From a virus (lineage: Duplodnaviria > Caudoviricetes), in IMG/VR virus record IMGVR_UViG_3300042862_000096, positions 1-55,705 of that record: 55,705 bases of DNA. One strand, 5' to 3'. Below are positions 16,227 through 36,277 of this stretch, one piece after another. The notes below the pieces were generated by a model. It had not been told where the DNA came from and did no database searches. It saw only the letters and a list, made by a program, of their open reading frames with translations. Numbering within the stretch: the stretch's first letter is position 1; each line of letters starts with the position of its first letter. Position numbers and translations under genes: made by a program.

Positions 16227-16426
16227 CTATCCGTATCATCAGTAATATCATCAAAGTCATCTTCCCTTATTATCATCTTACTCGTTAAATATAGTGCTTG
16301 GTTCTCAGTGAACCCAGCCCTCATCAAAGAATTAAACATTTCATGTAATGCAGTAGCCAGTTGTGCTAATGGACTGAAAGACCCATCACCGAAGTTCATA
16401 TTAAACTCAGACATCAACCACCTCAC
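16223..16426 (-). CDS. Small hypothetical protein
   Basis: LHEMF.SL..AGFTE.QAL motif typical of actinophage small proteins. Confidence 0.6.
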   Translation of the reverse strand: MRWLMSEFNMNFGDGSFSPLAQLATALHEMFNSLMRAGFTENQALYLTSKMIIREDDFDDITDDTDR

Positions 16427-16742
16427 TTACTGATTCATTATACCTGCCTACCGCTACTTTACCCCTCAGCGAAGGCGCAAACAAAGTATCAAGATATAGT
16501 GGCTCAGGTTTTATTTTAAGTTTCTTGCGTATATGACTTCTTTCTCTTTCTGTCTTTCCGCCCCATATACCAACAACATCATTCTTTAATGCGTAATCTA
16601 AGCAAGGTTTCAACCATGGGCAAGTTAGACAAAGTGTTTTGGCTAATCTTCCTGTTTGTCTATCTGCTGTTGGAAACCAAAGGTCTGGTTCTGTCTGGGC
16701 GCAAATTTGAGAGCCATCAAAGTCTGGATATTCGTTCGCCAA
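16407..16742 (-). CDS. whiB: WhiB-family transcription factor
   Basis: C...DLWFP...AK.LC..CP....CL.YAL....GIWGG.TE.ER. Confidence 0.93.
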   Translation of the reverse strand: MANEYPDFDGSQICAQTEPDLWFPTADRQTGRLAKTLCLTCPWLKPCLDYALKNDVVGIWGGKTERERSHIRKKLKIKPEPLYLDTLFAPSLRGKVAVGRYNESVSEVVDV

Positions 16743-17362: not shown

Positions 17363-18031
17363 ATGAAAATTCAATTTATACCAGGAAGTGAGCAAGTACA
17401 AGAAATTACAGAGGCTCCAGTACCAAGTAAGTATTGTATTCCTGATTGGTATAAAACCATAGCACCTAATCGCGCTGAGCCTAATATAAAAGCCTGTTCA
17501 CCTTTTTTAGACTCTTTAACGCATGGGTATATTCAAAGAACTTGGACTGATATTAGTGTTGACGAAACAGCAGACGGCTTTCAAATCTCAGCACCTCATT
17601 TAATTAAGATGGTAGATTTTCGCGAGCCGAATCACCTTCCAGAGATAGATGGCTATTTACATTATCAGTTCTTATGGAACTCAATATGGTCTCCAATTTT
17701 CCCGTCAGGTTTTTCAGGACTCGTTACTCACCCGCTAAATCGAATTGACTTACCTTTTTACACTTTCTCAGGAATAATTGATTATGATGAGTTTAGGCAT
17801 GTACCATTTGGCAACTTGCCTTTTTATATTAAAAAAGGTTTTACAGGGGTAATACCGAAAGGAACGCCTATGTATCAACTAATACCTTTGGCTAGAGAAG
17901 ATTGGGAGGCTTCCCTAGGAAAACATGACGCTGATTTTTGGAGCGAGAAAGTGGCAGAACGCGCTCAAATCCCTAATTGGTATAAGAAAAAGATTTGGAA
18001 GAAAAAGGAATTTCAGGTAGACGCGAAATGA
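17363..18031 (+). CDS. Conserved phage hypothetical protein, paralog of 1175-1876
   Basis: IPDWYK, IKACSPFLDSLTHGY, GVIPKGTPMYQLIP. Confidence 0.75.
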   Translation: MKIQFIPGSEQVQEITEAPVPSKYCIPDWYKTIAPNRAEPNIKACSPFLDSLTHGYIQRTWTDISVDETADGFQISAPHLIKMVDFREPNHLPEIDGYLHYQFLWNSIWSPIFPSGFSGLVTHPLNRIDLPFYTFSGIIDYDEFRHVPFGNLPFYIKKGFTGVIPKGTPMYQLIPLAREDWEASLGKHDADFWSEKVAERAQIPNWYKKKIWKKKEFQVDAK

Positions 18032-18408
18032 TATTTCATAAACACTTATTAGTTAATGCTAAAGTCAATAGCCCCATGAAGTCTGACGATGAGGCGATAG
18101 AGTTCTTAACTGACTTAGTCAAAGCAATAGACATGAAGATTATTAAAGGTCCTTTTGCCTCTTACGTAGATGTAGAGGGCAATCGAGGACTAACTGCCAT
18201 AGTTATGATTGAAACTAGCCATATTGCCTTTCATATTTGGGACGAACCTTCTCCTGCTTTATTGCAATTTGATCTTTACACCTGTGGGCAGTTAGATCAG
18301 AAAGCAGTCTTAGATACTATTAAGTCAAAGTTTGCTATTACTGCATTTGATTACATACTATTAAATAGAGAAAATGGTTTCATCACTGAAGAACATGGGT
18401 TTGAATAA
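18028..18408 (+). CDS. speD: S-adenosylmethionine decarboxylase proenzyme
   Basis: HKHLL, GLTA...IETSHIAFHIWDE, QFDLYTCG; start at 18028 by ATGA overlap. Confidence 0.85.
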   Translation: MIFHKHLLVNAKVNSPMKSDDEAIEFLTDLVKAIDMKIIKGPFASYVDVEGNRGLTAIVMIETSHIAFHIWDEPSPALLQFDLYTCGQLDQKAVLDTIKSKFAITAFDYILLNRENGFITEEHGFE

Positions 18409-19156: not shown

Positions 19157-19288
19157 TTAATTCGACCACCATTTATGTGCCACAAAAATAATATAAAACC
19201 TCAGGAATTGAATAGTAAGACTTTTATCCCAACTATGGAATTGAATTGCTATCCCCCAGTTATCTGTCACACCCTTAAAAACTTTCAT
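19157..19288 (-). CDS. 43-aa hypothetical protein (not in ORF track)
   Basis: [24 protein letters not shown]...; fills the gap between neighbouring genes. Confidence 0.4.
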   Translation of the reverse strand: MKVFKGVTDNWGIAIQFHSWDKSLTIQFLRFYIIFVAHKWWSN

Positions 19289-20924
19289 TTGTATCTCTCT
19301 CTACTATAGTTTTCGTATCAACAAAATATACCGCATCTAGGGTACTTTCGCTCAAGGTTTGTATTGCCTCGTCTTTAGTTTGAACTAAAGGCTCTCCAGC
19401 AAGATTGAAACTTGTATTAAGTAACATAGGACACCCTGTTTTTTCATAAAAGCCTTGAAGTAGGTCGAATAGAAAGCCTTCTTTGACTGTTTGTATTCTG
19501 CTTGTATTATCTACATGAATAATTCCGGGCACGAGGCTTATTGCCGACTCTTTTGCATCAAAGTTTACTGTCATATATTCTGATGAAGAAAGACCTAAAG
19601 TAACGAAATACTTATCGAATTCTGACTCTAATATAACTCCAGCAAAAGGTCTATACCATTCCCTTTTTTTAATTTTATTGACGATTGCCTTACAGTCCTT
19701 ATTTCTTGGGTCGAAAAGAATTGACCTATGACCTAACGCCCTTGGACCAGCCTCAGGACTGCCATCGAAAATGGCTAAACTCTTTTGATTGATTAACAAG
19801 TCTACTAAGTGTTCCATATTTGGCACTCTTTCACCAAAAGTTCTAAGGTCTAGGTCATAAAAATGAAAAAAGTTATCCTTTAATTTTTTAGGTCGCTTGC
19901 CTGTTTCCATAACATATTTCATCATAGCGGCACCAATAGGCACACCTGTATCATCGGCTACTGGTTCGAAATAGAAAGTAACATCTTTCATGTTTTTAAG
20001 ATAGAAGTTATTAGCGACTACATTTAATCCATAACCACCAACGAGGCAAACATTACGGACTTTGGTTTTCTCTACATGATATTTAATCAACTCTAAAACT
20101 GCTTCTTGGGTATCGATTTGAACTTGCTTAGCCAAGTTTGCGTACTCTAAGTAGTTTTGATTATCTATATCAGAAGTTATTTTATCTTCTTTTTCAAAGA
20201 AGCAAACAGGGTAAGAATCAGTAAATAATTCAGCCCTTGCAACGGACTTATGAAAGAGTTTATAGTTATCGTTGTAAGTTCCATAAGAGGAAAGCCCCAT
20301 AGTTTTTCCATTTTCTAAAGGGTTTTGCCCGATCATAGTTGTAGCCGACTCATAGACTTTAACAATGCTCAAAAAATTATTGAGAGTAACTTTTGTGTCA
20401 AGATAAAGAACTTCTAAAGACTTTAGAACTTTTAGCCGTTTAGAAGACATATCAGGCATAAGCCAAAAGTTTTTCTGTAAAGGTTTTAGAAAGTTATTTT
20501 TATCGCATAAATATACAGACTCTGACTCTCTAGCAACTTCTTTATCCTCAGCAAAAATTATAGAGCCATTTCGGTCAATAACAAAAACTAAGCAACTTTC
20601 AAACCCGCTATTAAAGTAGGCAAGGTTGGCATGTGATTGATGATGAGTTAGTGCCGAGAAATTCTCTAAAGGCACATTAAAAGTTTTTTCTATATAACGG
20701 CTATAAACAGTTTCAATACCGAGTTCATTGTTATCTGGTACTGTATAGAGCGCATGGTCTAAAGGTCCTGCTAAATTTGCTTTCAATAATTCTAAAGATT
20801 TGAAGGGGTGCTTGTCTCTCTTTTTTCTAGAGATTCGTTCTTCCTTACAAAAAAACTCAATTTCGCCATCATTTAATACACATACAGAACTATCATGGGC
20901 TATATTAAATGCTAGTATTCTCAT
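19275..20924 (-). CDS. Carbamoyltransferase (NodU/CmcH family)
   Basis: [64 protein letters not shown]. Confidence 0.93.
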
Positions 20925-22776: not shown

Positions 22777-23218
22777 TAAGCATTTCTAATACTACTTTCC
22801 TAGCCTCTTCAACGCTAATTGTTATTGGCGCTCCGTCAGGTCCAGAAAGTTCTGCTTTAATCTTAGTGTGTTGTGCCCAGCGTTCAGGGTGTTTTCTTTC
22901 TAGCCACCATGCTGCTGCTTGCCATCTTCCATTTTGTGCTGCTTGAACAATTCTGCCAACATTCATTGTTTCTGCTTCTGCTTCGCTACGCTCAAACGAC
23001 TCTCGAAATTCTTGTAATTCCTCACTAGCATTCTTGGCTCTTGACTGTTCTAACCAGCGATAAAGAGTTGCTTCAGATATACCAGCAAAGGAGCAGGCAA
23101 CTTTCTTGTCGTTTCCTGCTCTTATTGCTTTGATTAACTTATCCCTTCGAGCATCATCTAGTTTGGTCTTTCTTCCTCGCTTTGTAACAGAATCGTTATC
23201 AGTCATTATCTTGCCCAT
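22715..23218 (-). CDS. terS: Terminase small subunit
   Basis: GR.TKL, HTH (AGISEATLYRW), WQAAAWWLER..PE.W, LSGPDG.PI; directly upstream of terL. Confidence 0.8.
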   Translation of the reverse strand: MGKIMTDNDSVTKRGRKTKLDDARRDKLIKAIRAGNDKKVACSFAGISEATLYRWLEQSRAKNASEELQEFRESFERSEAEAETMNVGRIVQAAQNGRWQAAAWWLERKHPERWAQHTKIKAELSGPDGAPITISVEEARKVVLEMLNEGGDDGLIIDGESPEVIQE

Positions 23219-23823
23219 ACCGCAATAGTCTGCCAGCCTTTGGGCGTAATCTTAGGTGGCTTTATTGCTGTCCACTTCTCGAATCCTTGAATCAGTTTGG
23301 GTGCCTCTATCTCTCTTAAGGCTTTCCTGTTTAAGTGAATTTCCATTGTTACATATTGTACCGAATCAGGAAGTGTTTCGGGTATGTTGAATTCGTATTC
23401 TGCGCCCTCGCAGTCAATCTTTACTACATTGGGTTGAACTCTAGCCACTACCTCAGCAAATGAATCGCTCGGAACTATTATATGGTTTCTAGTTGGGCCA
23501 TCATAAAGAATACTATGTCCGCCCGTATGTCCAGAAGTTTTAACATTAAGCATTACATCTCTGCCATCACGGGTTAATGCTTTGTTATGGATTTCAACTG
23601 GTTTGCCTTCTGTGTTGAGAGTAAGCATACGGAAATTGTCTGGTTCTGGTTCATAGGCAACTACGAAACCAGCACCTTGTAGTAATGCCCAATTAGTAAA
23701 AGAACCTATGTGTCCACCAACATCTAACACTTTACAACCAGCAGGTATTGGGCAGGTTTTATACGCATTTATTTCGCCCAATGTCATAGCATCGGTTGTT
23801 CCTTCTCTAGTTTGCAAGTCCAT
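23206..23823 (-). CDS. FkbM-family SAM-dependent methyltransferase
   Basis: VLDVGGHIGSF, YEPEP.NF..L, KIDCEGAEY. Confidence 0.88.
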   Translation of the reverse strand: MDLQTREGTTDAMTLGEINAYKTCPIPAGCKVLDVGGHIGSFTNWALLQGAGFVVAYEPEPDNFRMLTLNTEGKPVEIHNKALTRDGRDVMLNVKTSGHTGGHSILYDGPTRNHIIVPSDSFAEVVARVQPNVVKIDCEGAEYEFNIPETLPDSVQYVTMEIHLNRKALREIEAPKLIQGFEKWTAIKPPKITPKGWQTIAVWAR

Positions 23824-24610
23824 GTAATGGTCTCTCTTTTCTTCCTAAAGTAATCGGCTTCAAGCGAAGATTCACTACTCCTCCTGCTTTAATCTGTATT
23901 GAAGATAGGTCTGGATATCTTTCTTGTACCCAACGCAATTCTGAAGCATGTCTATCTTTTCTCACATCTCCATCTTCTGTTACGCAAGCATCTATACCGC
24001 CTGAAGCAAAATACTTGGTCTTTGGGCATAAGAATTCTAGGCGAACAACGCAACCATATCTAGTAAATCCTCTAAGAGTTGAATGGTGGTCTTCTCCTGT
24101 TGGGGTCATGCGTCTTTCAGGATCGCAGAATATCCAGTCTTTAGCATAAGTTCCCATGAAGTTAGCACATATATATCGAAGTCCTACTGAAATATGGTCT
24201 TTTAAGAAGAAGTGGTTCATGGTTGGGTTAATACCCCACTGTCTTGCTCCCTGTTCTTCTGCTGTTGAGAAACCTATCTCTGCTATCTCGTCGAGTTGGT
24301 ACCGTGTTGGTACTAGTTTCTTATCTCCAAGTTCTAGTAAATCAGACATATCATCATCAATGCTTAATAGTCTTTCATTTTCAGGAAACCAGTTGTGGTA
24401 AAACTTTCTTTGGGTAGATATACCACGCACGCCAACAACAATGCGGTAATCGTCTTTTAATACAGACCGATAGAGTTCTTCTTGCTCTTCATTAGCGACA
24501 AAGACATGAACCTTATCTTTATCTACTTTCAGGCGTTCTAAAGTTGCTAGAGTTTGATCTCGGCAAATCTCTGCTCGCTGGTAAGAAGGAACTACTACTT
24601 GATACTTCAA
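23807..24610 (-). CDS. TET-associated glycosyltransferase (GT-A fold)
   Basis: VPSY.RA, R....N, IDDD, ED, GG motifs; directly downstream of TET/JBP-like gene. Confidence 0.78.
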   Translation of the reverse strand: MKYQVVVPSYQRAEICRDQTLATLERLKVDKDKVHVFVANEEQEELYRSVLKDDYRIVVGVRGISTQRKFYHNWFPENERLLSIDDDMSDLLELGDKKLVPTRYQLDEIAEIGFSTAEEQGARQWGINPTMNHFFLKDHISVGLRYICANFMGTYAKDWIFCDPERRMTPTGEDHHSTLRGFTRYGCVVRLEFLCPKTKYFASGGIDACVTEDGDVRKDRHASELRWVQERYPDLSSIQIKAGGVVNLRLKPITLGRKERPLHGLAN

Positions 24611-25527
24611 CCAACCTTAAACGGAGTATCACCTTTGAGAGCAGAAGCCAGTCCTGTTTCTCGTTCTGTTCTCCGTTTCCTCGCTTCTTTCTGTTCAACT
24701 GCGAATGAGAAGCAGTCTTTCATGCCTCTTAAGCAGTAATAAACAACTGTGTAGCGGTAAGAATCTTTCTGAACATGTGCTATCGGAGTAACTCCGTGAA
24801 GGTATCTGTATCCTGGAAAGAATAAACACCAACCATCTCGGCACTCAATAACTAAATCGTATTCGGGCATACTTAGGTAACCACCACGAGTACCTCTTCT
24901 AATTACTGGCATAGCAGACCACATATCAAAGTTGTTGCCGTCAAAGTGGTATGGAAGGGTTGAGGTTTTATTAATAACTCCGCTAGTCCAAAGACTTCGC
25001 TCGCTTAATCTCCACTCATCTGCTACTGCTGCTGTTTCGGTTACATCTGCATTGTATACATCAGGAATTAACTCTTTAATAATATCTGCTAATACATCTG
25101 CTGTTCTAGTTAGAACATCATGCTCTTCGGGTTGGTCATAAGATAATGCTGTTGGTCGGCATGCTTCTCTAGTTTGAAATGGTTTGCGTGGCGCCATACC
25201 GAAAGTTCTTGAATGATTTTCTACACCAGTTGATTGTCTAGTTACACCTGATGAAGAATACTTAATTGAACGAACTGCTTTTCTAAGTTCTGGAATTACT
25301 GCTTCTGGTAGAGGCATGTAAACTAAGAAAGGTTCATTGGTGTCTGCATCAACATAGATTCCAGCCTCTTTGATATTTGCTTCTAACTCTGGAACATCTA
25401 CACCTTTAAGTTCCTTAGTTTTACTTCTATCAAAAACTCTTTTGACTGGTATTACATCTAAATCTTTAATCACTTGGTGCCTCTGTTCCAGTCGCTTCCG
25501 CAACTGCTCTAATAATGGCGTCCCCAT
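24607..25527 (-). CDS. TET/JBP-like 2OG-Fe(II) DNA base oxygenase
   Basis: WTSGVIN...YHFDGNN, GG.L..PEY, HGVTPI, R..VVYY. Confidence 0.78.
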   Translation of the reverse strand: MGTPLLEQLRKRLEQRHQVIKDLDVIPVKRVFDRSKTKELKGVDVPELEANIKEAGIYVDADTNEPFLVYMPLPEAVIPELRKAVRSIKYSSSGVTRQSTGVENHSRTFGMAPRKPFQTREACRPTALSYDQPEEHDVLTRTADVLADIIKELIPDVYNADVTETAAVADEWRLSERSLWTSGVINKTSTLPYHFDGNNFDMWSAMPVIRRGTRGGYLSMPEYDLVIECRDGWCLFFPGYRYLHGVTPIAHVQKDSYRYTVVYYCLRGMKDCFSFAVEQKEARKRRTERETGLASALKGDTPFKVG

Positions 25528-26137
25528 TACTATCTACATTATACTTTACTCTAAGTTCAGTTAGCCTGTCTTGAATCCAAATATATTGGTCGTTAGGAAA
25601 CTCACACATTAACAGCCTGACTGTTCTTTCGGCATAGTGAGATGCTCTTTCAGACATAGTCGGTCTTCTATTAACTCCTTCTTGTGCTAATTGACCGCCT
25701 CCACTAACACCCTCAACCATACTTCCAGTCTCTTCGTAAGAAGGAGTTATTGACTGTTCTTCAATTAACGCAAGTAAATCATCTATATCTTGGGTGTCGT
25801 AGCCAGTTCCCTCTAGACTAATATCTTGTAATAAATCTAATAATTCTTTCTCATCATAAGTTCCAAGTTCGCCTAATCTATTATCGCTGGCTACTATCTT
25901 CTTCGCTTGGGTGTTATTAACATCTACCTCAACAGTATCAACTCTTGTCCAACCTAATTCTTTTGCTGCTTGCCATAGATGGTTACCGGCAAGTATGTAT
26001 CTAGTTGATGCCTGAATAACAATCGGCTTGTATTGTCCGTTAGCATTTAAAGATTCTTTAAGTTTATTAACATTACCTCTTCTTGGGTTATTTGGAAAAG
26101 GTAAAAGCGTTTCTATATCAGAACTAATAATCTCCAC
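25466..26137 (-). CDS. ParB-like (ParBc) protein
   Basis: L.P.PNNPR.G, SL...GQ..PIVI, ILAGNH...AA..LG, DNRL.EL. Confidence 0.85.
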   Translation of the reverse strand: MEIISSDIETLLPFPNNPRRGNVNKLKESLNANGQYKPIVIQASTRYILAGNHLWQAAKELGWTRVDTVEVDVNNTQAKKIVASDNRLGELGTYDEKELLDLLQDISLEGTGYDTQDIDDLLALIEEQSITPSYEETGSMVEGVSGGGQLAQEGVNRRPTMSERASHYAERTVRLLMCEFPNDQYIWIQDRLTELRVKYNVDSNGDAIIRAVAEATGTEAPSD

Positions 26138-26156
26138 AACTACTCCTTCTTGTAGG

Positions 26157-26360
26157 GTGAGAGCCTATCCTGTTGGAAGGGTAATAACAACTGGGATAGA
26201 CTCTCACAACTTAGAGTGATAACAAATAGATTAAATACACCACGTAATTTAGTCTATCTATCGGGTTAAGCAGTCGGACGGAAGGGACAAACTGCCACTC
26301 GTATAACCCAATTCTATTTAACTTACTTTCTGCTTCAATGAAGGTAAGGTTAGTGCTGGT
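26157..26360 (-). ncRNA. Structured leader/sRNA candidate with CCCUUC-containing loops
   Basis: Hairpin 26157-26207 (loop UUAUUACCCUUC) and hairpin 26263-26309 (loop contains UGUCCCUUC); further stems at 26226-26257 and ~26322-26349; TATGAT -10 candidate at 26424-26429. Confidence 0.5.
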
Positions 26361-26448
26361 CCTGTATATCTTCTGTTCATTTCTTTCTGAAGTCTTTTGG
26401 CTGACCACTTATAAATACCAAACATCATATTGAAATACATTTTTCTCC

Positions 26449-26640
26449 CTAGTCTAAACACTCAGAGCAATAAGACATTGCCCTTACATTATCTACTCCA
26501 GTATTAAACCATTTCCCGCAATGGCAACACTGAATACGAACTAATTTAGTAGCCTCTTTTTTCTTAAATAGATTACCAAGGGAAATCATTTTCAGTGCCT
26601 TCATTTTCTTTGATCTGAGAATTCTGTGGTTCAGGCACAT
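26449..26640 (-). CDS. Small Zn-finger protein (true start probably ~26589)
   Basis: CCHCG...YCSEC. Confidence 0.55.
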   Translation of the reverse strand: MCLNHRILRSKKMKALKMISLGNLFKKKEATKLVRIQCCHCGKWFNTGVDNVRAMSYCSECLD

Positions 26641-26968
26641 ACTTAGGTACTACGCCTACAGAATCTGCGTTGATTTCTAAACTCTTCTTTTCTTCTCCGT
26701 CTTTAGTTCTGAAAGTATTGATTTGAAACCTGCCCTGAACAAATACTTTATCTCCCTTTTTCAATGCGTTCGCTGCTCCTGCTGCTTCTGCATTCCATAC
26801 GAAAACTCTATACCAAGTAGTTTCTTGGTCTGTCCAAGTTCCGTTAATGTTTTTCCTAGGAGTATTAGCAAGATTGAAAGATGTCACAGGTATACCCTTT
26901 GGTGTCTTTCTAAACTCTGCATCAGAACCTAAGTTTCCAACTATCGTAATTACTGGTTCACCAGCCAT
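26573..26968 (-). CDS. ssb: Single-stranded DNA-binding protein
   Basis: ITIVGNL..D.E.R.TP.G, TTWYRV.VW, LKKGD.V.V.G, acidic DFPW tail. Confidence 0.93.
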   Translation of the reverse strand: MAGEPVITIVGNLGSDAEFRKTPKGIPVTSFNLANTPRKNINGTWTDQETTWYRVFVWNAEAAGAANALKKGDKVFVQGRFQINTFRTKDGEEKKSLEINADSVGVVPKYVPEPQNSQIKENEGTENDFPW

Positions 26969-27317
26969 CAGCCTTCCCTTCTAAGTAGCGATAACTTCCG
27001 TCATCTGTAAGTAGAACAATAGCACCACTAGGCAAAATCAATGGAGTATCTTCCGAGTCTTGCCAAGTTGCTACCATCAACCCTGCCTGATTAGAAGCGG
27101 AAGGGTTGAGATGAACACTATCCGTTCCAGTATTGTGGCATTCGTGATGTAAGGCAACTAGGTTTGATACGGTATCTTTCCCTCCACGAGACCGCAACTT
27201 CCTATGGTGTAAAGCCCATGTTTCGGTTAAGGGCTTACCGCATTTTTCGCAGTAGCCACCACACCGAACTCTCACCATTTCACGCATCTCTGTGAAATCA
27301 GTTTTGCTATTACTCAA
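26958..27317 (-). CDS. HNH endonuclease
   Basis: CEKCG, HHRK.RSRGG, NLVALHH.CH. Confidence 0.85.
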   Translation of the reverse strand: MSNSKTDFTEMREMVRVRCGGYCEKCGKPLTETWALHHRKLRSRGGKDTVSNLVALHHECHNTGTDSVHLNPSASNQAGLMVATWQDSEDTPLILPSGAIVLLTDDGSYRYLEGKADGW

Positions 27318-27699
27318 TTATTTGCTCTATTCCTATCCATACTCCCTGCTTCTCTCCATAAGTTTTGCTGGACTGTATGAGGATTACTTGAGAGTCATCT
27401 TCGTAAGCAACGCCAGTTAATCCATCTAGAACTGCCCTGATTAGTTTATCAAGGTCTGGTTTAACTGAGGGGAATGCTCTTTTTGCTGATTTAGGTCTAG
27501 CAATGATAAAGTCCAATTCAACTTTGACCGCACTTGCAATAGGTTTGAAACCAAATAGTTCTGCGTTTCTTGCTACATCAGCACGCCATAAAGCCAAGTC
27601 CTGAGAACGAGAGTGAATCATCACTCCAGGTCTTATGAACTTCATTGAACCTTGAGGAACAGGTCTTCCTTTAACAAAGAAAGAGTTCTTCAGTACCAT
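27310..27699 (-). CDS. rusA: RusA-like Holliday junction resolvase
   Basis: V.G.PVPQGS, PDLDKL.RAVLDGLTG...DDSQV. Confidence 0.9.
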   Translation of the reverse strand: MVLKNSFFVKGRPVPQGSMKFIRPGVMIHSRSQDLALWRADVARNAELFGFKPIASAVKVELDFIIARPKSAKRAFPSVKPDLDKLIRAVLDGLTGVAYEDDSQVILIQSSKTYGEKQGVWIGIEQIIE

Positions 27700-28477: not shown

Positions 28478-28719
28478 TTTCCACCTTTACCCTTCCACCG
28501 AGTTAAGTCGGCAACCGATATTCTATGTTTATCTTTCATGTGGCTTGAGAAAGGAACTGTTGGGTCGAACAATAAACCGACTCCAACTTCCCAAACTACA
28601 ATGAAACCCTCGCAGAAAGGACAGGACATAGATTCCCACCCTTCCCCTACTTCCTTATCGCCAATATACACATCAAGCCTTCTGTGATGAATACATTCGT
28701 TGAGCCACTCGGAAAGCAT
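28471..28719 (-). CDS. Small Zn-finger-like protein
   Basis: CPFC...HM..KH. Confidence 0.5.
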   Translation of the reverse strand: MLSEWLNECIHHRRLDVYIGDKEVGEGWESMSCPFCEGFIVVWEVGVGLLFDPTVPFSSHMKDKHRISVADLTRWKGKGGNW

Positions 28720-29455
28720 AACTTAGTAAGTCTGAAAGGTCTTTGCTTGCTGCTTCGTCTATTGCCAGTAGAGATATGCGCCCAAACCTTTTGGTCATTT
28801 GTCCGATTCTTGCTATCTCTGGACCTGTTAAAACTCTTGATTGGAGTTCCGACACATACCAAGAAGTAAGAGCAATACAACCACCAATATCATTCTCAGA
28901 GTGGAGTATGTCCCATTGCTCTTCAACCAACTTGCTCATGTTCCAAGCATTCACTCCACCTGCTCTTGCTTCACCCAGTTTGAGAGATATGCGCTCTACT
29001 GCATTTTTTGCTGATAGATTTCTTGGAACAAGTACTACCTCCTTAGATATGTCTATATCTAAGGGGTATGGGTTGGGTTGGGTTGGGTTGGGTTGGGGGC
29101 TGAGTTTCTTTTCCGTTTCATTTGAGTTTTGCTTTTCCCTGAATTTACGGAGTCTCTCTTTGGCTTCGTCCCTCTTCTTATTAACCTTTTCCCTTGTTGG
29201 CTGATATTCAGTATAGGAGCGAATAGCAAAACCTTTATCTACCCTTTCCCATAAGTTTTGGTCTTCTAGTTCATCGCTAGGTTTGAACGGATCATCGCCC
29301 ACCCAAGCACTTACGATTTGATATGGAATAACCCCGTCAGTTAATTGCCTATTTGAATAACACAGTCCAGTAATAAATAACCTGAAAGCCTTATCCGATA
29401 AAGCAATTATCTTGGGGTGGTCAGCAAAATTGTCATCAACTCTTACCCACCCCAT
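28673..29455 (-). CDS. Replication initiator / replisome organiser
   Basis: MGWVRVDDNFADHPKI..LS, coiled coil, PxPxP linker. Confidence 0.7.
   Translation of the reverse strand: MGWVRVDDNFADHPKIIALSDKAFRLFITGLCYSNRQLTDGVIPYQIVSAWVGDDPFKPSDELEDQNLWERVDKGFAIRSYTEYQPTREKVNKKRDEAKERLRKFREKQNSNETEKKLSPQPNPTQPNPYPLDIDISKEVVLVPRNLSAKNAVERISLKLGEARAGGVNAWNMSKLVEEQWDILHSENDIGGCIALTSWYVSELQSRVLTGPEIARIGQMTKRFGRISLLAIDEAASKDLSDLLSYAFRVAQRMYSSQKA
29070..29099 (+). repeat. (GGGTT)5GGGGG microsatellite adjacent to a 10-bp perfect inverted repeat (29041-29064)
   Basis: Read directly from the sequence. Confidence 0.9.
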
Positions 29456-29541
29456 AATTTACCTCCGCCTTCTTTATCTTTTAACATATATCCCTTCCTT
29501 GACCTTTCAGTCATCATGTCAGTTTTAATTGGTGCTGTAAA

Positions 29542-30483
29542 TCATTTCTTGACTGTAAGTCGGGCGGATTCTTTGCCGGTCTTGTAGGGGACATTGCCTA
29601 GAAGTTTCTTCACTTCACTTTCATCAACAGTTTTCCTGCCAGCAATAAGACTCCAAATTATCTTAATGCCTTGTGGAGTAATACCATTAACGCCTTCTAG
29701 TGCAGACTTAATAGCATCTTTCTGTTTTTCTAGTTCTGTAATTCGCTCATTGATTTCGATATAATCCTGTGCGGCTAACGCAATTTGTGTATCTTCAATA
29801 ACTGCGCTTTCCGCTTCGGCTTTTGGGCGACCGACACAACCCTTCACACCACTAGCATCATAGAATCCACAATAGTTCTTACAGAATACTGCGTCTTTTT
29901 CTGCTGGTGGCGGTGTTTTAGATTCACGAACTTGGGCAAGCCAAGCAAGTGCTTCTTTGCAGACCTCGGGATCAAATGGTTCGCTGTGATAAACAATATC
30001 TCTTTCGTCTCCGTCTCTCGGAATACCAACAAGAGTTACTGTTTTAACTTGATGTCCACCACGACTAGCAAGATATCCATATAGTTGTACTTGCCAGCGT
30101 TGGGCTTTTGATGGGAAGTAGCGACCTAGATTTGATTTGGTGCTAGTTTTCCAATCTATAACCTCTTGGTTTTCTTTGTCATACATATCTATGTGTCCGA
30201 CTAAATCATCTTCAGGGGAATCGAACTCTTGTTCTAATAAGAACCTTTCCGCAAATGGGTCTTGTTCATAAAAGATTTTCTGTAAATGGGAGTGAATACC
30301 AGTTCCCATAATTGAAGCGAGAGATAGTGTGTTTTGATTAGTTGGCTCTTGGTCGTTTAATTTATACCAGAGTTTTCTAGCACAACCACCTACTTCACTA
30401 GGTCCAACCTTAGTTTGTCTAGACCTAGTAGAGTTCTTGCTTGACTTAGTAATTATGCTGATTAGGTCATCAACTTGGGTCAT
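29542..30483 (-). CDS. PD-(D/E)XK exonuclease (Cas4/RecE-like)
   Basis: GPSE.GGC.R, GT.IH, GHID, DWKT, Q..LY, C..YC...C. Confidence 0.85.
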   Translation of the reverse strand: MTQVDDLISIITKSSKNSTRSRQTKVGPSEVGGCARKLWYKLNDQEPTNQNTLSLASIMGTGIHSHLQKIFYEQDPFAERFLLEQEFDSPEDDLVGHIDMYDKENQEVIDWKTSTKSNLGRYFPSKAQRWQVQLYGYLASRGGHQVKTVTLVGIPRDGDERDIVYHSEPFDPEVCKEALAWLAQVRESKTPPPAEKDAVFCKNYCGFYDASGVKGCVGRPKAEAESAVIEDTQIALAAQDYIEINERITELEKQKDAIKSALEGVNGITPQGIKIIWSLIAGRKTVDESEVKKLLGNVPYKTGKESARLTVKK

Positions 30484-30749
30484 ACATTTACCCCTTCTTT
30501 TTTGGTGGAGTTATATACTTTTTCTAAGTAATCTCTCCAAGCACCAGACAGTTCCGACCATATTCCTTCATCTCTATCCATTTTCTCAACAACTTCTTCC
30601 CATTGCTCATTAGTTATAGAGAAGTCTTCACCTTCATTAAGATTTTCTCTAATGTGTTCTTCCGACTCTTCTTTATAATACAGAGCAACAAAGACCAAGT
30701 CATCATCACTCATGTCTTTAATGATTTCCTTAAGTTCTTTCACTTTCAT
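30480..30749 (-). CDS. Hypothetical protein
   Basis: AAGGGGTAAAA RBS before ATG at 30749. Confidence 0.65.
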   Translation of the reverse strand: MKVKELKEIIKDMSDDDLVFVALYYKEESEEHIRENLNEGEDFSITNEQWEEVVEKMDRDEGIWSELSGAWRDYLEKVYNSTKKEGVNV

Positions 30750-30760
30750 TTTTACCCCTT

Positions 30761-30868
30761 CTAGTCTTCGTAGCACATATCGCACATTGCGATAAGTCCT
30801 TTATTAGTTATTACTTTGTGCGTTGCTTCTTCGCCAGTGTCGCAATTTTCGCATTTAATTCCGTACAT
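30761..30868 (-). CDS. 35-aa Zn-finger peptide (not in ORF track)
   Basis: MYGIKCENCD...MCDMCYED; GAAAGGGTAAAT RBS. Confidence 0.55.
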   Translation of the reverse strand: MYGIKCENCDTGEEATHKVITNKGLIAMCDMCYED

Positions 30869-30881
30869 ATTTACCCTTTCT

Positions 30882-31256
30882 TTAGATATCAAGTGAAGCC
30901 CTAACAGAAGTTCCGATAGAGCGAGCGATATCTACTTGAGTTCTAACTCTTTGCCCATTGCCTCTTGCTGCTTTAACCATAGCGTCTGCAATCTGTAGGG
31001 CATGAAACTCATCAGCGCATTGTAAGAGTGCTGTATCAGCAACATCTTGAACACGCATTTTGGCAAATGAAGTTCCTGTTTCTATTCTTGCTCTTGCTAT
31101 GGATAACTCGAAAGCGGACTTGGCTTTGTGGTAATCCATTTCCGCTTTAGATAGTTCTTCATGCGCTAAGTCAATTTCTTTACTTAGTTCATAAAGTCTG
31201 TTTTCTATTCGTGTTGGTGTTATCGCCATTTCAGATACCTCGCTGACCGCTACCAT
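30882..31256 (-). CDS. Hypothetical coiled-coil protein
   Basis: TP..IE.RL..LS; RSIGTSVR C-terminus. Confidence 0.65.
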   Translation of the reverse strand: MVAVSEVSEMAITPTRIENRLYELSKEIDLAHEELSKAEMDYHKAKSAFELSIARARIETGTSFAKMRVQDVADTALLQCADEFHALQIADAMVKAARGNGQRVRTQVDIARSIGTSVRASLDI

Positions 31257-31726
31257 GATGAGTGATAACTAAAAGATAAGTCATCAATATCGGGTAGGTT
31301 AAGCACTCGGTCAAGTTTAGTAATTGTCTCTTCGATATCAGCCCAGTAATATTCATTGATATCAGTTGAGCCAAAAAAGAAACCTTCAGTTGGCATGAGA
31401 AGACTTGGGTTCTTTTCGTCTATCACTCTGTGGCATAAGTGCCTTAGAGTCTTTAGATTTTCCGCAGAAACATAATAAGTTCCGCAGTCATCTTTTCCGT
31501 CTTGAACATTTTTTACAAACCAGTTATGTATGGCATTTGATTTACGCCAATAAGCGCAAACTACTTCTACCGAAGCCCCATAAATATCTGATGGCACATG
31601 GTCAAGTTCGACCAATGTCATGAGTGTTGTGTACTTAGGATTCACAGCGATTTCTTTTGCTGTTGATTCCTGCCAGTTCACTTTATGAACATGCTTTGAA
31701 GCACTTAGGTACATATCTAGTCCCAT
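31250..31726 (-). CDS. Conserved phage hypothetical protein
   Basis: MGLDMYL, YWRK.NAIH.WF, LPT..GFFFG-like, Y..SW. Confidence 0.75.
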   Translation of the reverse strand: MGLDMYLSASKHVHKVNWQESTAKEIAVNPKYTTLMTLVELDHVPSDIYGASVEVVCAYWRKSNAIHNWFVKNVQDGKDDCGTYYVSAENLKTLRHLCHRVIDEKNPSLLMPTEGFFFGSTDINEYYWADIEETITKLDRVLNLPDIDDLSFSYHSSW

Positions 31727-31894
31727 ATTTATTTACCCCTTCTATCTAATAAGTGACAAACTATGCAAGGATTTTCCCCATAGGTTCTATTGCCACATTT
31801 ACAGTTGTTTATATTTTCTTTAGGTATTTCTATTGGCGCTGTTGGTAATGGGTGGGGATAAGTTAAGAACCACCCATCACGCCAATGGTATTGT

Positions 31895-32467
31895 TTAGAC
31901 ATTGCCAAACAGCATTCCGTTACTGAATTCATTAGCCGTAACCCACACAATACAATCATTTCGATTTTGATTCTTGCGTGTTTTACCTGAATCAACTAAG
32001 AAGTTGTCAAGTACTAATGAACGCCTACTGGCTGAAACAGTTTGATGACTAATCTTCAATACAGTTTCTAATTCATAATCTGTATATCCGTAGCCATTAT
32101 TAGATTTAATTGTGTCATAAACTTTCCTGCGAATACTGCCAGTATTTGGTAATACCTTTTCCGCAGACTTACGACTTGTATTTTGTGCTTTTTTACTTAT
32201 CAGAACTACATTATCACCGACTTCACGGATATATTTACCACTCCGTTGAGCCATAGTTATGTAGTGATTTCTTCTGATAATCTCGGCAACTTCTTTTTGG
32301 GTCTGATGAGGTGCCCACTCATCAGTAGGTTTCAGTGTAGTTATGTCATACGCAACTGGGTGTGCCTCGCAACTGCTTGACTCATAGTCGCATATCCATA
32401 ACATATTGATACTGGGTCTACTGATACGAGTTCTGCACCAGTAGCACCCATCTACCATTAGTTCCAT
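31895..32467 (-). CDS. Hypothetical protein with C-terminal winged-HTH-like domain
   Basis: G.TD.EL...L...HQTVSA.R..LV....DSG..R......VW; GAAGGGTAAG RBS. Confidence 0.65.
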   Translation of the reverse strand: MELMVDGCYWCRTRISRPSINMLWICDYESSSCEAHPVAYDITTLKPTDEWAPHQTQKEVAEIIRRNHYITMAQRSGKYIREVGDNVVLISKKAQNTSRKSAEKVLPNTGSIRRKVYDTIKSNNGYGYTDYELETVLKISHQTVSASRRSLVLDNFLVDSGKTRKNQNRNDCIVWVTANEFSNGMLFGNV

Positions 32468-32469
32468 AC

Positions 32470-33360
32470 TTACCCTTCTACTATTTCTTGTATATGGACC
32501 AACAAATACTCCTTCAATAAAACTTCCTTTGCCCCTGCCCAGCGAGTTTGCTGTAATAGTGGTTTAGGAATAGGAGTACCTAATAACTCTTTATTGTCGT
32601 TCCATAGTTTTTTAAGTTGCTCTTTTGATTCTGCTTTGTCTATATCATTCAACAGAGACAACCATTGTGTTTCTTTTACTGGTTCTTTGGTTTCAGCAAC
32701 TGATACATCTTGTGGCTTATCCATAGAAACAATAGCCAAATCAACTTTCTTTGGCTGTATCTTTTCTTGAACTACTACATCAACTTGGCTCATTTCTTCA
32801 TCAGTATAAATACCTGATAAATCATTAGGGAAAGCCTTACGCAAGGCTAGTGACTCTGCGCATTTAGCCAACATAACATCAGGCATCTTCTTCCATATCG
32901 GATTATTCAATACGGCATAAGATTCCCAACGAGCAACTGCCCAAGTTGGTTCAGCAAAATTAGTGCGATAAACACCAATCTTTGCTGCTACTGGGGCGGT
33001 GTTTGATAACCAAACATCTTCCCAAGTTCCATCTGGACCACACCAATATGGTGCAGTTTGTCCAGCATATTGCCCACTGCGCTGAGCAATAATTCTGAAG
33101 CCATCAATACTGGTTTGAATACCCCATCTTCCGCCACGATTTATCATGTAAATCTGACGAGCGAATGGGTCAAGTCCAGTTCTTTGTGCTTGATGAAAGA
33201 AGAACGCTAAATCACCTGAGTCGGCTTGCGCTAAGCCAAGTGATTTAAGTGCTGCTAGTTGCTGAGGAGACCAGTAGGTCTGCTCATTTGTTATTGCGAG
33301 CGATGTGCTCATTTGTTTCCCCTTCGGTTTCTTGTTCCATTTCTTGCAATACTTTTGCAA
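32470..33360 (-). CDS. bet: Red-beta/RecT-family recombinase (true start probably MSTSL, ~33312)
   Basis: GLDPFARQIY, QTSIDGFR.IA.R.G.Y.GQ, W.KMP..MLAKCAESLALRKAFP..LSGIYT.EEM. Confidence 0.9.
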   Translation of the reverse strand: MQKYCKKWNKKPKGKQMSTSLAITNEQTYWSPQQLAALKSLGLAQADSGDLAFFFHQAQRTGLDPFARQIYMINRGGRWGIQTSIDGFRIIAQRSGQYAGQTAPYWCGPDGTWEDVWLSNTAPVAAKIGVYRTNFAEPTWAVARWESYAVLNNPIWKKMPDVMLAKCAESLALRKAFPNDLSGIYTDEEMSQVDVVVQEKIQPKKVDLAIVSMDKPQDVSVAETKEPVKETQWLSLLNDIDKAESKEQLKKLWNDNKELLGTPIPKPLLQQTRWAGAKEVLLKEYLLVHIQEIVEG

Positions 33361-33573
33361 GTTCTTCCGTAGCGATTTTTTCCATTATATTTAACCAGTC
33401 AGGTCTATTTTTCATTTTGTTGTACCCCCATGACCACAGGACACACAAACAGCGTATGGAAAATCCATAGTGTCGTGAAACTTTTGACTTTGACATTTAT
33501 CATTTCTGCAAATGATTTTATTGCCAACGCCATCGTGAGTGATTGTTCCGTATATCATTACCCTTCCTTTCCG

Positions 33574-34239
33574 TTATTTGTTTGGTATGACTGGACTGCG
33601 TAAATCTTCACGCCACTTTTCAATGGTTGAATATTTCCACAGTGGGGTGCGACCGTATTGCTTATCAGGTTTAGGCATTTGTTTCCTAGACTTGTAAGCA
33701 GAAATAGTCTTAGGTGATACACCTAATAAGTCGGCAACCTGTTTGCTTGTTAGGTAAACGACTCCTGTTTTCAACATACTTGTATCTGCTCCTATTCTTA
33801 TAGTTCCCATAAGAAAGAATCCTTCTTCACTATTTGGCCAGACATAAGGAATATTGTCTGGAACTTCATATTTATAGAAGTCGGGTGCTTTTCTCATAAG
33901 ATTTGATTGGTGAGTTAAGTGAACTAATGAATCTTTCACCCACCATGGTTTTGGTTTATGAGATTCTTGATTTTGGTTCATAAATAACCAAAACTTTTGC
34001 TCAAGGGAATCCTTGAAGCCTCGGCTAATCCACTCACCGCAAATCTCATAACCATAGTTTGCTAGTTGCCATTCATGCCCTTGCCACATCTTTGTAGCAG
34101 GGTGATTTGTCCAGCCATTTGATTTACCAGTTAAAGAGTTAAGGATTTGATATGCCTCAACTCTTTGCTTGCCCAGTCGCTTATTATCAAGCGACTGAGC
34201 AACAACAGCATATTTAGAAGCCGTCATAAAGGTTTGCAC
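33574..34239 (-). CDS. Pyrimidine-dimer DNA glycosylase-like domain fused to C-terminal HTH
   Basis: MQTF..., LD.KRLGKQRVEA.QI, HPA..MW.G, H..HQSNL.RK.P..Y; then YLT..QVA.LLGVS..TI..Y....MP.P...GR..LW. Confidence 0.8.
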   Translation of the reverse strand: MQTFMTASKYAVVAQSLDNKRLGKQRVEAYQILNSLTGKSNGWTNHPATKMWQGHEWQLANYGYEICGEWISRGFKDSLEQKFWLFMNQNQESHKPKPWWVKDSLVHLTHQSNLMRKAPDFYKYEVPDNIPYVWPNSEEGFFLMGTIRIGADTSMLKTGVVYLTSKQVADLLGVSPKTISAYKSRKQMPKPDKQYGRTPLWKYSTIEKWREDLRSPVIPNK

Positions 34240-34476
34240 TTAGTATCTCCAGTCATATCCGCAAGTGTTGGTTTCAATGTCACATTCCCACCAAAGACCA
34301 GACACAAAGAACACAAACAGACCGATACCTAGTCCAATAAGAACACTTACTACTATCCGACCTCTTCGGGTTAATAGAGTTTTGCGTCCTTCTTGGATTT
34401 CAAGTGCTTGTAAGCGTAGTGATAGCAGAGTCCCAATGATTCCACTAAGCACGAAAACCGCAATCATGTAAAACAT
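34240..34476 (-). CDS. Two-TM membrane protein
   Basis: Two hydrophobic segments with LTRRGRIV; GAAGGGTAT RBS. Confidence 0.65.
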   Translation of the reverse strand: MFYMIAVFVLSGIIGTLLSLRLQALEIQEGRKTLLTRRGRIVVSVLIGLGIGLFVFFVSGLWWECDIETNTCGYDWRY

Positions 34477-34517
34477 AGATACCCTTCTTTCTTTTCAGTA
34501 GTAATTCGTCTGCGATA

Positions 34518-34528
34518 GACAGCCGAAT
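34518..34528 (-). promoter_or_regulatory. ATTCGGCTGTC motif copy (others at 38800-38810 and 40523-40533)
   Basis: Three identical intergenic 11-mers in the same orientation. Confidence 0.6.
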
Positions 34529-34529
34529 T

Positions 34530-34703
34530 TTATTTTCTTGGAAATCGCACCTTGAATCCTGTTGGATCCATGCTTGCGAAGTGTTCATTTACCATGTCTT
34601 GTAGCAGAGATACTGTTTCTGCTTTCGCTTCTTTTGCTTTTACTTTTTCCAGTTGTGACTTGGGAGTTGGAACCTCAACTGTTACATAGAAACGAGCCTT
34701 CAT
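34530..34703 (-). CDS. 57-aa hypothetical protein (not in ORF track)
   Basis: MKARFYVTVEVPTPK...; GAAAGGAAA RBS. Confidence 0.6.
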   Translation of the reverse strand: MKARFYVTVEVPTPKSQLEKVKAKEAKAETVSLLQDMVNEHFASMDPTGFKVRFPRK

Positions 34704-34821
34704 GATTTTCCTTTCGATTTATCTTGGGGATTTTCCGCCAAGACTTGTGTTCATCTTACAGCCTGAGCCTACTTTGCCCATTCATTTATACCGAGCGTTT
34801 TGCCTCTTCAAATGAAGGACT

Positions 34822-34903
34822 TATACGACCTATAGAGCCTTCATAAGATTAAGCCCAAGGATTACCCTGAACTTAATTATCTGAAGACTCTAATAGGCGT
34901 ATA
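34822..34903 (-). other. 82-nt long imperfect RNA hairpin
   Basis: TATACG/CGTATA, CCTAT/ATAGG, AGAG/CTCT, CTTCA/TGAAG, ATTAAG/CTTAAT; G-U pairs form only on the minus strand. Confidence 0.75.
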
Positions 34904-34923
34904 GGAGTTTTTTTATTTACAGG

Positions 34924-35913
34924 CTACGCAGTTAGCAAAGATTGCGCTTTATCTTTGAACTTTTCAGTACCGCCTAGAATTATTCTTTCGGCACGAAGTT
35001 CATCTTTGCCTTCTTTACTTCTTACTGGCTTAGCCCAATCTGACCACTCTACAACAGCGTTGTAAGCAGCCCACTTTGTGCCAGCAATATTGCTTTGCGT
35101 TGGTGCTTTCCACAAAGCAAATAGTTCATTTCGCTTTTGCTCAAATGAGTTCTCAGCCCTCTTGGTTAATTCACCCTTTGGCTCAGGCACTAGAACTTCA
35201 ATGAACTTCTTGTATTGCGTATCTGTGAACTTCTCAGATAGCAACTGCTCAACCTCTTGCTGAAAAGCCTCTTGGTATTTGAACACTATACCTAGAGTCT
35301 CTCTTGCGTGTTGAACTTTGGCAGTAGCACCAGAAGTATGCTTCAGAGATATCTTAGACTTTGCAGAAGCAAGTGCTAAGCGAACTGTGTTTGTGCATAC
35401 TGCTCTGATAGGTGTTACGGCAACAGTGAAGGAAGATGAACCATCGTGGCTATTAACAGCCATAATATAGTTATCTACTACATCTGCCCCATTGGCTAAC
35501 TTCATAGAGTCAGGGAACTTCATAGTCATGAAAACACGACCACCCTTCTTCAATGAACCAGCAGTTTCGAATCTAGCACCCGACTCATCAGCAATAAGGT
35601 TTAAGAAATCAAACGCCTCACTGTTTTGAATTGGTGTATATCGATTACCAACTACACCCAACGCAGCCATTCCTGACTTTGGGTGATTACGATAAGTAAG
35701 AAACTTATCTTGTAGTGTGATTGTTTTACCATCAACAACTGTGCTGATAGGTTCTTCACTTACTTTTACTGGCCACTCTAACTGCGCAGTTTTAAGTGCG
35801 TCTTGTGCAGTTAAGGCATTCGGTGTAATTTCACCGAGTTTATGCCAAGCGACTTCTCGATTAGAGAAGAACGCACTAGTGCCATCAGCAAATTGCTCTA
35901 TTTCATGAGCCAT
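34924..35913 (-). CDS. DUF932/DUF945-family protein
   Basis: MAHEIE, AWH.LG, LGVVG.RY..IQN.EAF, FETAGSL..G..VF, NSHDG, RAVC.NT, HTS. Confidence 0.85.
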   Translation of the reverse strand: MAHEIEQFADGTSAFFSNREVAWHKLGEITPNALTAQDALKTAQLEWPVKVSEEPISTVVDGKTITLQDKFLTYRNHPKSGMAALGVVGNRYTPIQNSEAFDFLNLIADESGARFETAGSLKKGGRVFMTMKFPDSMKLANGADVVDNYIMAVNSHDGSSSFTVAVTPIRAVCTNTVRLALASAKSKISLKHTSGATAKVQHARETLGIVFKYQEAFQQEVEQLLSEKFTDTQYKKFIEVLVPEPKGELTKRAENSFEQKRNELFALWKAPTQSNIAGTKWAAYNAVVEWSDWAKPVRSKEGKDELRAERIILGGTEKFKDKAQSLLTA

Positions 35914-35941
35914 TTACTTTACCCTTTCTTCTTTTCTGACG

Positions 35942-35996
35942 AGGCTCGTCAGTAGTGGCAATTACCACTAGACCCTACTTTCGTAGGGTTTCGCCT
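35942..35996 (-). ncRNA. Type II hammerhead ribozyme HH5 (cleavage between 35971 and 35970)
   Basis: AGGC GAAA CCCUAC GAAA GUAGGG UC/ UAGUGG UAAUUG CCACUA CUGACGA GCCU: full core, three closed stems. Confidence 0.95.
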
Positions 35997-36190
35997 TAAT
36001 TAACTTCAACCCATTCCATGGCAACACGAAGTAAATTATCGTAGTCGCCAGACATTGAAGCATTGCTGTATTCATCTATCTGTTCTTTTGTTGCTCCTGC
36101 TCTTCTGAGAGCAGACCTAACTGATCCCATTATCGCGAAAGCATTTCCGTCATTTCCTGTAAGTTGAACTGTTGTATTGAACTTAGGCAT
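35996..36190 (-). CDS. Conserved small phage protein
   Basis: V.L.G.DGNAFAIMG.V..AL..AG...SGDYDNLL; GAAAGGGTAAAT RBS. Confidence 0.8.
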   Translation of the reverse strand: MPKFNTTVQLTGNDGNAFAIMGSVRSALRRAGATKEQIDEYSNASMSGDYDNLLRVAMEWVEVN

Positions 36191-36212
36191 ATTTACCCTT
36201 TCTTTGTTCTGA

Positions 36213-36277
36213 AGAACTCATCAGCGTAGTCATTTAACTACGGACGCCCAACCGAAACCGACTGGGCGTTTCGTTCT
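36213..36277 (-). ncRNA. Type II hammerhead ribozyme HH4 (cleavage between 36243 and 36242)
   Basis: AGAAC GAAA CGCCCA GUCGGUUUCGGU UGGGCG UC/ CGUAGU UAAAUG ACUACG CUGAUGA GUUCU. Confidence 0.95.

Follow-up and report, generated by a model that had tools for sequence, protein, structure and literature searches.

A phage genome in which the early and late genes meet at a single gap of 180 nt raises the question of what that gap encodes and how it might bear on the passage from one class of genes to the other. The DNA analyzed here (referred to as the window) is the whole virus record IMGVR_UViG_3300042862_000096 (55,705 bp; completeness estimate, 92%; GC content, ~40%), in which the minus strand carries almost all genes. 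The gap is the exact boundary between the early and replication genes and the late genes (beginning with the ParB/TET-modification/terminase block). The ParB-like gene is followed by genes for a Tet_JBP oxygenase, a TAGT glycosyltransferase, an FkbM methyltransferase, TerS, and TerL; beyond TerL lie the portal and capsid genes and then the tail and lysis genes, which wrap round the record end (the features around the gap are listed in Table 1). The gene at 24607-25527 is labeled "queuine tRNA-ribosyltransferase" in PHROGs but is a Tet_JBP 2OG-Fe(II) oxygenase according to Pfam. With the ParB-like gene before it and the genes for the TET-associated glycosyltransferase and the FkbM methyltransferase after it (23206-26137, minus strand), this oxygenase gene belongs to a cytosine-hypermodification block, not a 7-deazaguanine one.

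The virus, which is uncultured, is probably an actinobacterial siphovirus. The nearest relatives of its oxygenase are encoded by Rhodococcus, Mycobacterium, Gordonia, Microbacterium, and Arthrobacter phages, and this actinophage affinity, together with a gene for a WhiB-like transcription factor (16407-16742, minus strand), suggests an actinobacterial host with a low GC content, possibly from freshwater. The top TerL match, however, is from a Microcystis phage (47.6% identity). Auxiliary genes in or near the late region (19275-20924, 17995-18408, and 66-1174), some of which are on the plus strand, encode Nol-like carbamoyltransferase, S-adenosylmethionine-decarboxylase-like, ferrochelatase-like, and 2OG-oxygenase-like proteins. 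Of the two small open reading frames (ORFs) upstream of the gap, the Zn-ribbon ORF had no Pfam match and the 40-codon ORF had no PHROG or Pfam match.

Table 1. Positions of the RNA element, its neighboring genes, and the early-region motifs in the window
Feature	Position	Strand	Remarks
Repressor-like gene and many small genes	40.4-34 kb	minus	
AAGGGTAA copies of the early/middle region (13)	28487-40350	minus	Proposed targets; leftmost bases 28487, 30871, 32470, 33558, 35919, 36193, 37069, 37858, 38366, 38772, 39205, 39564, 40343
Type II hammerhead-like elements (five)	35943-35995, 36213-36277, 37882-37934, 38382-38434, 39584-39643	minus	Between early genes
Genes for RecT, exonuclease, replication initiator, RusA, HNH, SSB	33-26.6 kb	minus	
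Small Zn-ribbon ORF (CxxC...CxxC)	26449-26604	minus	Conserved directly 5' of the RNA element
40-codon ORF	26318-26440	minus	RBS AGGGAG; between the Zn-ribbon ORF and the RNA element
Promoter-like site TTGAAG-16-TAGAAT	26311-26338	minus	Ends 2 nt 5' of H1; putative function
RNA-element gap	26138-26317	minus	180 nt
H1	26263-26309	minus	Two-part hairpin; loop UUUGUCCCUUCCGUCC, containing GUCCCUUCC
H2	26221-26262	minus	Hairpin varying in sequence and length, between H1 and H3
H2-H3 linker UAUCACUCUAAGU	26208-26220	minus	CACUC kept in 13 of 15 rows
H3	26157-26207	minus	18-bp hairpin (14 + 4 pairs), one U-G pair; apical loop UUAUUACCCUUC
RBS and start codon of the ParB-like gene	26135-26148	minus	RBS AAGGAG, GTG start
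ParB-like gene	25466-26137	minus	First gene after the element

Structure and conservation of the RNA element

On the minus strand, the gap is predicted to fold into three hairpins, H1, H2, and H3 (-59.2 kcal/mol), and a 211-nt region folds better than its shuffled versions (z = -3.36; 1 of 200 shuffles was as good). A preliminary description of this DNA, made from the sequence alone, had placed a multi-hairpin region of ~280 nt before the ParB-like gene; the three hairpins are real, and the length is ~180 nt. Both hairpins delineated there were recovered at the same positions, namely, H3, with its G-U pair on the minus strand, and H1, with GUCCCUUCC in its loop. The H3 loop UUAUUACCCUUC is the complement of GAAGGGUAAUAA, and in several relatives the H1 loop is UUACCCUUCCGUCC and carries the H3-type motif UUACCCUUCC. 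In addition, GAGUG in the internal loop of H1 (26292-26296) may pair with CACUC of the linker (26212-26216) to form a pseudoknot; across 15 aligned rows, its five candidate pairs include one compensatory change from G-C to A-U (L278) and one A-A mismatch (L305).

The -10 candidate of the preliminary description, TATGAT at 26424-26429, has to be abandoned: it sits inside the 40-codon ORF, and this ORF is missing in the four close relatives read at this junction (L002 to L005), where the stop codon of the Zn-ribbon ORF directly precedes the element. A better candidate, although a weak match to the consensus (9 of 12 positions), is the promoter-like site just 5' of H1, and TAGAAT or TAGATG is kept before H1 in close relatives; the region has no excess of such sites (31 versus an expected 39.4). 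No U-tract follows H1, H2, or H3 on the 3' side, which rules out an intrinsic (rho-independent) terminator, and a terminator scan gave no site at the element. Searches with Rfam 15 yielded no match at the gathering score over the whole window and three chance-level matches over 26100-26480 (best E value, 0.054), and no tRNA was found. A preQ1-type riboswitch was dropped as a candidate because the "queuine" neighbor is a Tet_JBP oxygenase, the long perfect hairpins are without a ligand pocket, and Rfam gave nothing. A reading of the loop as the ribosome binding site (RBS) of a plus-strand ORF was likewise rejected, as no start codon occurs downstream.

Relatives were gathered through their ParB-like and oxygenase proteins in IMG/VR and metagenomes. 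With a covariance model derived from four sequences, the complete three-hairpin element was detected at 15 loci, 14 of them distinct. In the resulting alignment, which was fitted to the model and thus somewhat favors the structure, 95.3% of the cells are paired and 14 of the 41 pairs have changed on both sides (compensatory changes), a level reached by none of 500 shuffles; shifting the pairing partners by 1 to 3 columns lowers the paired fraction to 34 to 41%. Compensatory changes affect 4 of the 18 pairs of H3 (nine sequences; no pair is broken) and 6 of the 10 pairs of the H2 helix (helix 3). Distant relatives, with ParB proteins 56 to 62% identical, are without H1 and H2 and retain an H3 of 20 to 28 bp directly before the ParB-like gene; in one lineage (L202), an inserted gene leaves H3 ~990 nt upstream. 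The stem sequences of these distant hairpins are unrelated to that of the window, and 10 of their 20 pairs show compensatory changes (12 sequences). When all 23 H3 hairpins were submitted jointly to RNAalifold, no structure was predicted, the arms being out of register, and the subfamilies were therefore folded separately. A stem segment, GUCURUC/GAYAGRC, is partly conserved.

Despite this complete turnover of the stem, the H3 loop UUACCCUUC is retained across ParB identities of 56 to 98%, metagenome relatives included, so that the lack of loop conservation which the preliminary description had named as a point against its reading did not materialize. That description had also left the strand in doubt. 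The sense (gene) strand is more stable than the antisense strand in 12 of the 14 H3 hairpins, with 42 G-U pairs in total, and the G-U pairs of the conserved fold occur on the gene strand only; these two observations indicate an RNA on the minus strand, exclude a plus-strand RNA, and argue against an element acting at the DNA level. As judged from the alignments, the gene strand of the gap carries a structured RNA that has been conserved.

The region 25400-27400 had no blastn match among cultured phages, no prophage relatives were found in GTDB genomes through the TET-like protein, and a search for relatives of the divergent L214 ParB returned only L214 itself. The exact H3-loop pattern occurs at 36 loci in IMG/VR, of which only 4, all on already known contigs, have the hairpin, the remaining loci being chance matches in coding sequence; a looser, gapped loop pattern gave >120 matches, most of which are expected by chance. 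In some distant relatives (L195, at 9880-9925; L193, L196, L199, L200, and L201), an HTH_17 gene and a covarying outer helix lie near H3, and a conserved block, AGUGUGUUAYRCUUCCUGYCAAUGG, is located directly 5' of it. The TGTGTTAYRCT part of this block could be an extended -10 promoter or merely the 3' arm of the covarying helix.

Complementarity between the loops and the early ribosome binding sites

The loop sequence UUACCCUUC(C) is the exact complement of GAAGGGUAA, a start-associated motif that serves as the RBS of ~13 to 20 early and replication genes. This loop sequence is presented by H3 in every relative and by H1 as well in the subfamily of the window. Fourteen copies of AAGGGTAA occur on the minus strand, 13 of them within 28.4 to 40.4 kb and 2 to 9 nt before start codons, and the late genes have AAGGAG or GGAGG as their RBS; the division into two RBS classes made in the preliminary description is thereby confirmed. 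On the plus strand, AAGGGTAA has a single copy, at 26177, which is the H3 loop. The counts for GAAGGGTAA are seven on the gene strand and one, again the H3 loop, on the opposite strand. Relatives show the same asymmetry between the gene strand and the opposite strand (9 versus 2 in G001, 7 versus 1 in G004, 9 versus 2 in G005, 11 versus 1 in G006, and 7 versus 0 in G008). The density of AAGGGTA on the gene strand is 1.89 per 10 kb in the loci of this family versus 0.13 per 10 kb in 1.1 Mb of other ParB-bearing phage loci, the hosts of which are probably different (~14-fold).

The pairing of the loops with the start regions of all genes, which the preliminary description had called for, follows the same division. 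Predicted duplexes of -10 kcal/mol or lower were obtained for 16 of the 34 genes starting at 26.5 to 40 kb and for 1 of the 62 other genes (Mann-Whitney P = 2.7e-6). Shuffled loops, being C rich, also pair with G-rich RBSs (mean of 5.5 and maximum of 23 start regions at -10 kcal/mol or lower), and 7 of 300 reached the observed 17 start regions; composition alone thus accounts for part of the signal. In predicted pairing with a canonical anti-Shine-Dalgarno (anti-SD) tail, used in place of that of the host, the early motif reaches approximately -8 kcal/mol and thus qualifies as a reasonable SD sequence; the loop is predicted to bind the early RBSs more strongly, at -10.4 to -12.8 kcal/mol versus -7.8 to -8.5 kcal/mol for that tail. 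The UAA conserved after GGG in the early motif has no pairing with the 16S rRNA. Two properties of antisense RNAs are found here: in the predicted fold, a stable stem-loop holds the complementary sequence in its unpaired loop, and the complementarity to the target RBS region exceeds that expected by chance.

In three divergent lineages, moreover, the start-site consensus is shifted in a manner complementary to the loop. In L205/G009, the loop is AAUCCCUUUU (UUAAUCCCUUUUC) and the RBS is AAAGGGA (7 of 10 sites have A following GGG, and none has T); in L214, the loop is CUACCCUUU and the RBS is AAGGGTAG, with G at the changed position in 8 of 9 sites; and in L201/L202, the loop is CCCUUUC and the RBS is aAAGGG. 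When the sites of the genomes were permuted against the loops of the lineages, the true assignment was beaten or equaled by 4,138 of 362,880 assignments (P = 0.011), a value that comes from about three lineages, which are few and not phylogenetically independent. The co-variation anticipated in the preliminary description is therefore seen in these three lineages but does not extend to every position: G008 is an exception, with the loop CUACCC and yet an RBS that is mostly GGGTAA, and in the window itself the fourth base after GGG is A in the RBS and T in the complement of the loop.

Possible functions of the element

In our estimate, there is about an even chance that the element is an antisense RNA of the late leader by which the early RBSs are masked as a class. 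On this reading, the timing of its transcription, its pairing inside the cell, and its repressive effect would be as follows. The RNA of the gap would most likely form the 5' leader of the late operon (i.e., the DNA modification, packaging, and structural genes). At the onset of late transcription, it would pair with the early RBSs, either within the late mRNA or as a processed fragment. Pairing between loop and RBS would out-compete the anti-SD sequence of the 16S rRNA, switching early translation off and sparing the late genes. A leader or small RNA that silences the early RBS class and spares the late genes had been put forward in the preliminary description; the early-specific complementarity, the conservation of the loop, the co-variation, and the parallel in K1 mycobacteriophages (see below) speak for that proposal, whereas the promoter that it named was wrong. 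Masking of 13 to 20 RBSs by one RNA would require a high abundance of that RNA, which counts against the antisense reading, as do the weak promoter-like match, the predicted pairing of the loop with the ParB RBS in the subfamily of the window, and the imperfect or missing loop matches in Cluster K outside K1.

The early region contains a second class of candidate RNA elements. Each of the five hammerhead-like elements precedes a GAAAGGGUAAAU RBS by 20 to 30 nt; all five have intact cores (CUGAYGA, GAAA, and GUC), and stems I, II, and III covary between the copies. The best score with the Rfam model RF02276 is 34.6 bits (E = 3.7e-4), under the gathering score of 37. Similar elements are present in six relatives, ahead of their own variants of the RBS, and arrays of hammerheads on the flanks of prophage genes have been described before (PMC3088659). 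If these predicted hammerheads are active, they would cut the early mRNAs into monocistronic pieces, and if such pieces persist, a dedicated translational shut-off would make sense.

Among the alternatives to an antisense RNA, the best supported, though unlikely in our view, is an RNA whose loops are bound by a phage or host protein (e.g., the Zn-ribbon protein, a late antiterminator, or ribosomal protein S1) and which controls late transcription or translation in cis, the complementarity to the RBSs being secondary. Loops that stay constant while their stems change freely are a typical feature of protein operators, the presence of the loop motif in two copies would fit recognition by a dimer, the candidate pseudoknot suggests a compact fold, and the small Zn-ribbon ORF is invariably found directly upstream. 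The neighboring ORFs yielded no RNA-binding domain, however, and protein binding leaves unexplained why the loop should be complementary to the early RBS, why the motif is otherwise missing from the opposite strand, why loop and RBS change jointly, and why the same arrangement recurs with a different motif in mycobacteriophage Adephagia (see below).

An improbable function, and one that could coexist with an antisense role, is that of an RNA processing or stability element, in which the long perfect hairpins (18 to 28 bp) would be RNase III sites or protective ends separating the early and late mRNAs. An invariant 9-nt loop complementary to RBSs is not needed for this, and H3, with no U-tract after it, does not qualify as an intrinsic terminator, even though the stems are long, near-perfect, and located at an operon boundary, one stem segment is partly conserved, and early mRNA would already be processed by the candidate hammerhead ribozymes.

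Translational control of the ParB-like gene in cis, in which the H3 loop would pair with the RBS 10 to 20 nt downstream (as a pseudoknot) and thereby mask or time the first late gene, comes next and is also improbable. Such pairing is feasible for the ParB RBS of the subfamily of the window (GAAGGAGUAG; -9.8 kcal/mol), and in L187 GAAGGGAUAA is the RBS of the gene that comes after H3; distant relatives with the same loop, however, have the ParB RBS GAAAGGCAA, GGAGGCG, or GAGAGGC, with at most 4 to 5 complementary bases, the hairpin of L202 is far removed from the ParB-like gene, and the early RBSs are the best loop matches in every genome. A DNA-level element (e.g., a protein-binding inverted repeat, parS, an origin, or a pac site) would fit an inverted repeat that adjoins a ParB-like gene and lies 3 kb before the terminase gene but is very improbable, given that the G-U (G-T) pairs occur on one strand only, that the fold of the opposite strand is the less stable one in 12 of the 14 hairpins, and that the spacer (the loop), not the stem sequence, is conserved.

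Start-associated sequences of Cluster K mycobacteriophages and known shut-off systems

An arrangement similar to that of the window occurs in Cluster K mycobacteriophages. In passages of the literature on these phages, 13-bp start-associated sequences (SAS) are described before 13 to 19 nonstructural genes (PMC3203893, PMC11373665, PMC12699233). According to the passages of the original report, the SAS is an asymmetric motif located 3 to 9 nt before start codons and conserved beyond its pairing with 16S rRNA (Pope et al. 2011, PMC3203893). Its function is still called unknown in passages of papers from 2024 and 2025 (PMC11373665, PMC12699233), and an antisense partner is not proposed in the passages of these Cluster K papers (PMC3203893, PMC11373665, PMC12699233).

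In Adephagia, 16 SAS lie on the gene strand and one is reversed. This reversed copy makes up the 10-nt loop CCUCCUAUCC at the tip of a ~20-bp gene-strand hairpin (L348, 48662-48717; ~58.66 to 58.72 kb of the record), which lies in a 430-nt gap between genes 92 and 93 (z = -6.7 for the region). The predicted duplex between this loop and a SAS start region has an energy of -22.8 kcal/mol, the hairpin region is conserved in 182 Mycobacterium phage records, and 6 of the 20 pairs show compensatory changes among seven phages. It is at genes 92-93 that, in the RNA-seq passage of one of these papers, "late transcription appears to initiate" (PMC11373665), which would place the hairpin in or at a late leader, as proposed for the window. 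The match of the anti-SAS loop is perfect in K1 phages and imperfect or absent outside K1: Unicorn has 15 standard SAS, yet its loop matches at only 8 of 10 positions; the loops of Amgine and Unicorn/Shadow1 are only partly complementary to the SAS; in Keshu, MacnCheese, and Yuna, the loop is different or deleted; and TM4 has SAS but neither a reversed copy nor such a hairpin. The existence of SAS phages without an anti-SAS hairpin indicates that the hairpin is not required for SAS to exist.

The window system works like the SAS but is not a member of that family. Both consist of a conserved asymmetric motif a few nucleotides before the starts of a subset of nonstructural genes, and in both the window and Adephagia the motif occurs in one orientation with a single reversed copy, an asymmetry also seen in the relatives of the window. 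The motifs, in contrast, are different (GAAGGGTAA in the window and GGGATAGGAGCCC in Cluster K), the phages and hosts are unrelated, and the window is without the ESAS inverted repeat of Cluster K, having candidate hammerhead ribozymes upstream instead. Tentatively, we suggest that actinobacteriophages may mark their early regulon by a phage-specific start motif that is silenced as a class by one late-leader hairpin RNA carrying the anti-motif and that this strategy may have arisen at least twice, with GAAGGGUAA in this group of freshwater phages and GGGAUAGGAGCCC in the K1 mycobacteriophages. If true, this would offer a testable answer to a question open since 2011, namely, what purpose the SAS serves and for what reason a single reversed copy is present in each K1 genome. 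A direct test is possible, as Adephagia and Mycobacterium smegmatis are tractable and RNA-seq data exist.

The class-wide silencing proposed here has a counterpart in phage T4, in which early mRNAs are shut off by the proteins RegB (an endoribonuclease) and RegA (a repressor). In T4 and, as proposed here, in the window, the early genes share an RBS feature by which they can be silenced together at a later stage of infection; T4 uses proteins for this purpose, whereas the effector proposed for the window is an RNA. RNA shut-off of a whole temporal gene class would, if true, be a new way to time a lytic cycle, with RNA in the place of RegB and RegA, and the pair of motif and loop could be put to use as an orthogonal translational switch.

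The masking of an RBS by antisense loops is itself already known, from c4 of phages P1 and P7 and from small RNAs (sRNAs) of the RNAIII type. In a limited literature search, we found no case of one RNA directed against the early RBS class of the phage that encodes it and no reading of the reversed SAS as an equivalent of such an RNA. In the passages available on c4, this antisense RNA of P1/P7 is described as having loops complementary to sites around an RBS, blocking translation, and lying on the same strand as its target operon (PMC12197685). The c4 RNA and the window element are alike in being phage RNAs with loops complementary to RBS sites; they differ in that c4 targets one mRNA (ant) for immunity, whereas the window element is proposed to act on 13 to 20 RBSs, and there is no similarity in sequence or model between them (no Rfam family at threshold). 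In Firmicutes, C/U-rich hairpin loops of the sRNAs RNAIII and RsaE pair with the G-rich SD regions of several mRNAs. Both sRNAs are encoded by the host, end in terminators of their own, and have short UCCC seeds, whereas the complement in the window is longer (9 to 13 nt) and includes a phage-specific extension (UAA) past the SD core.
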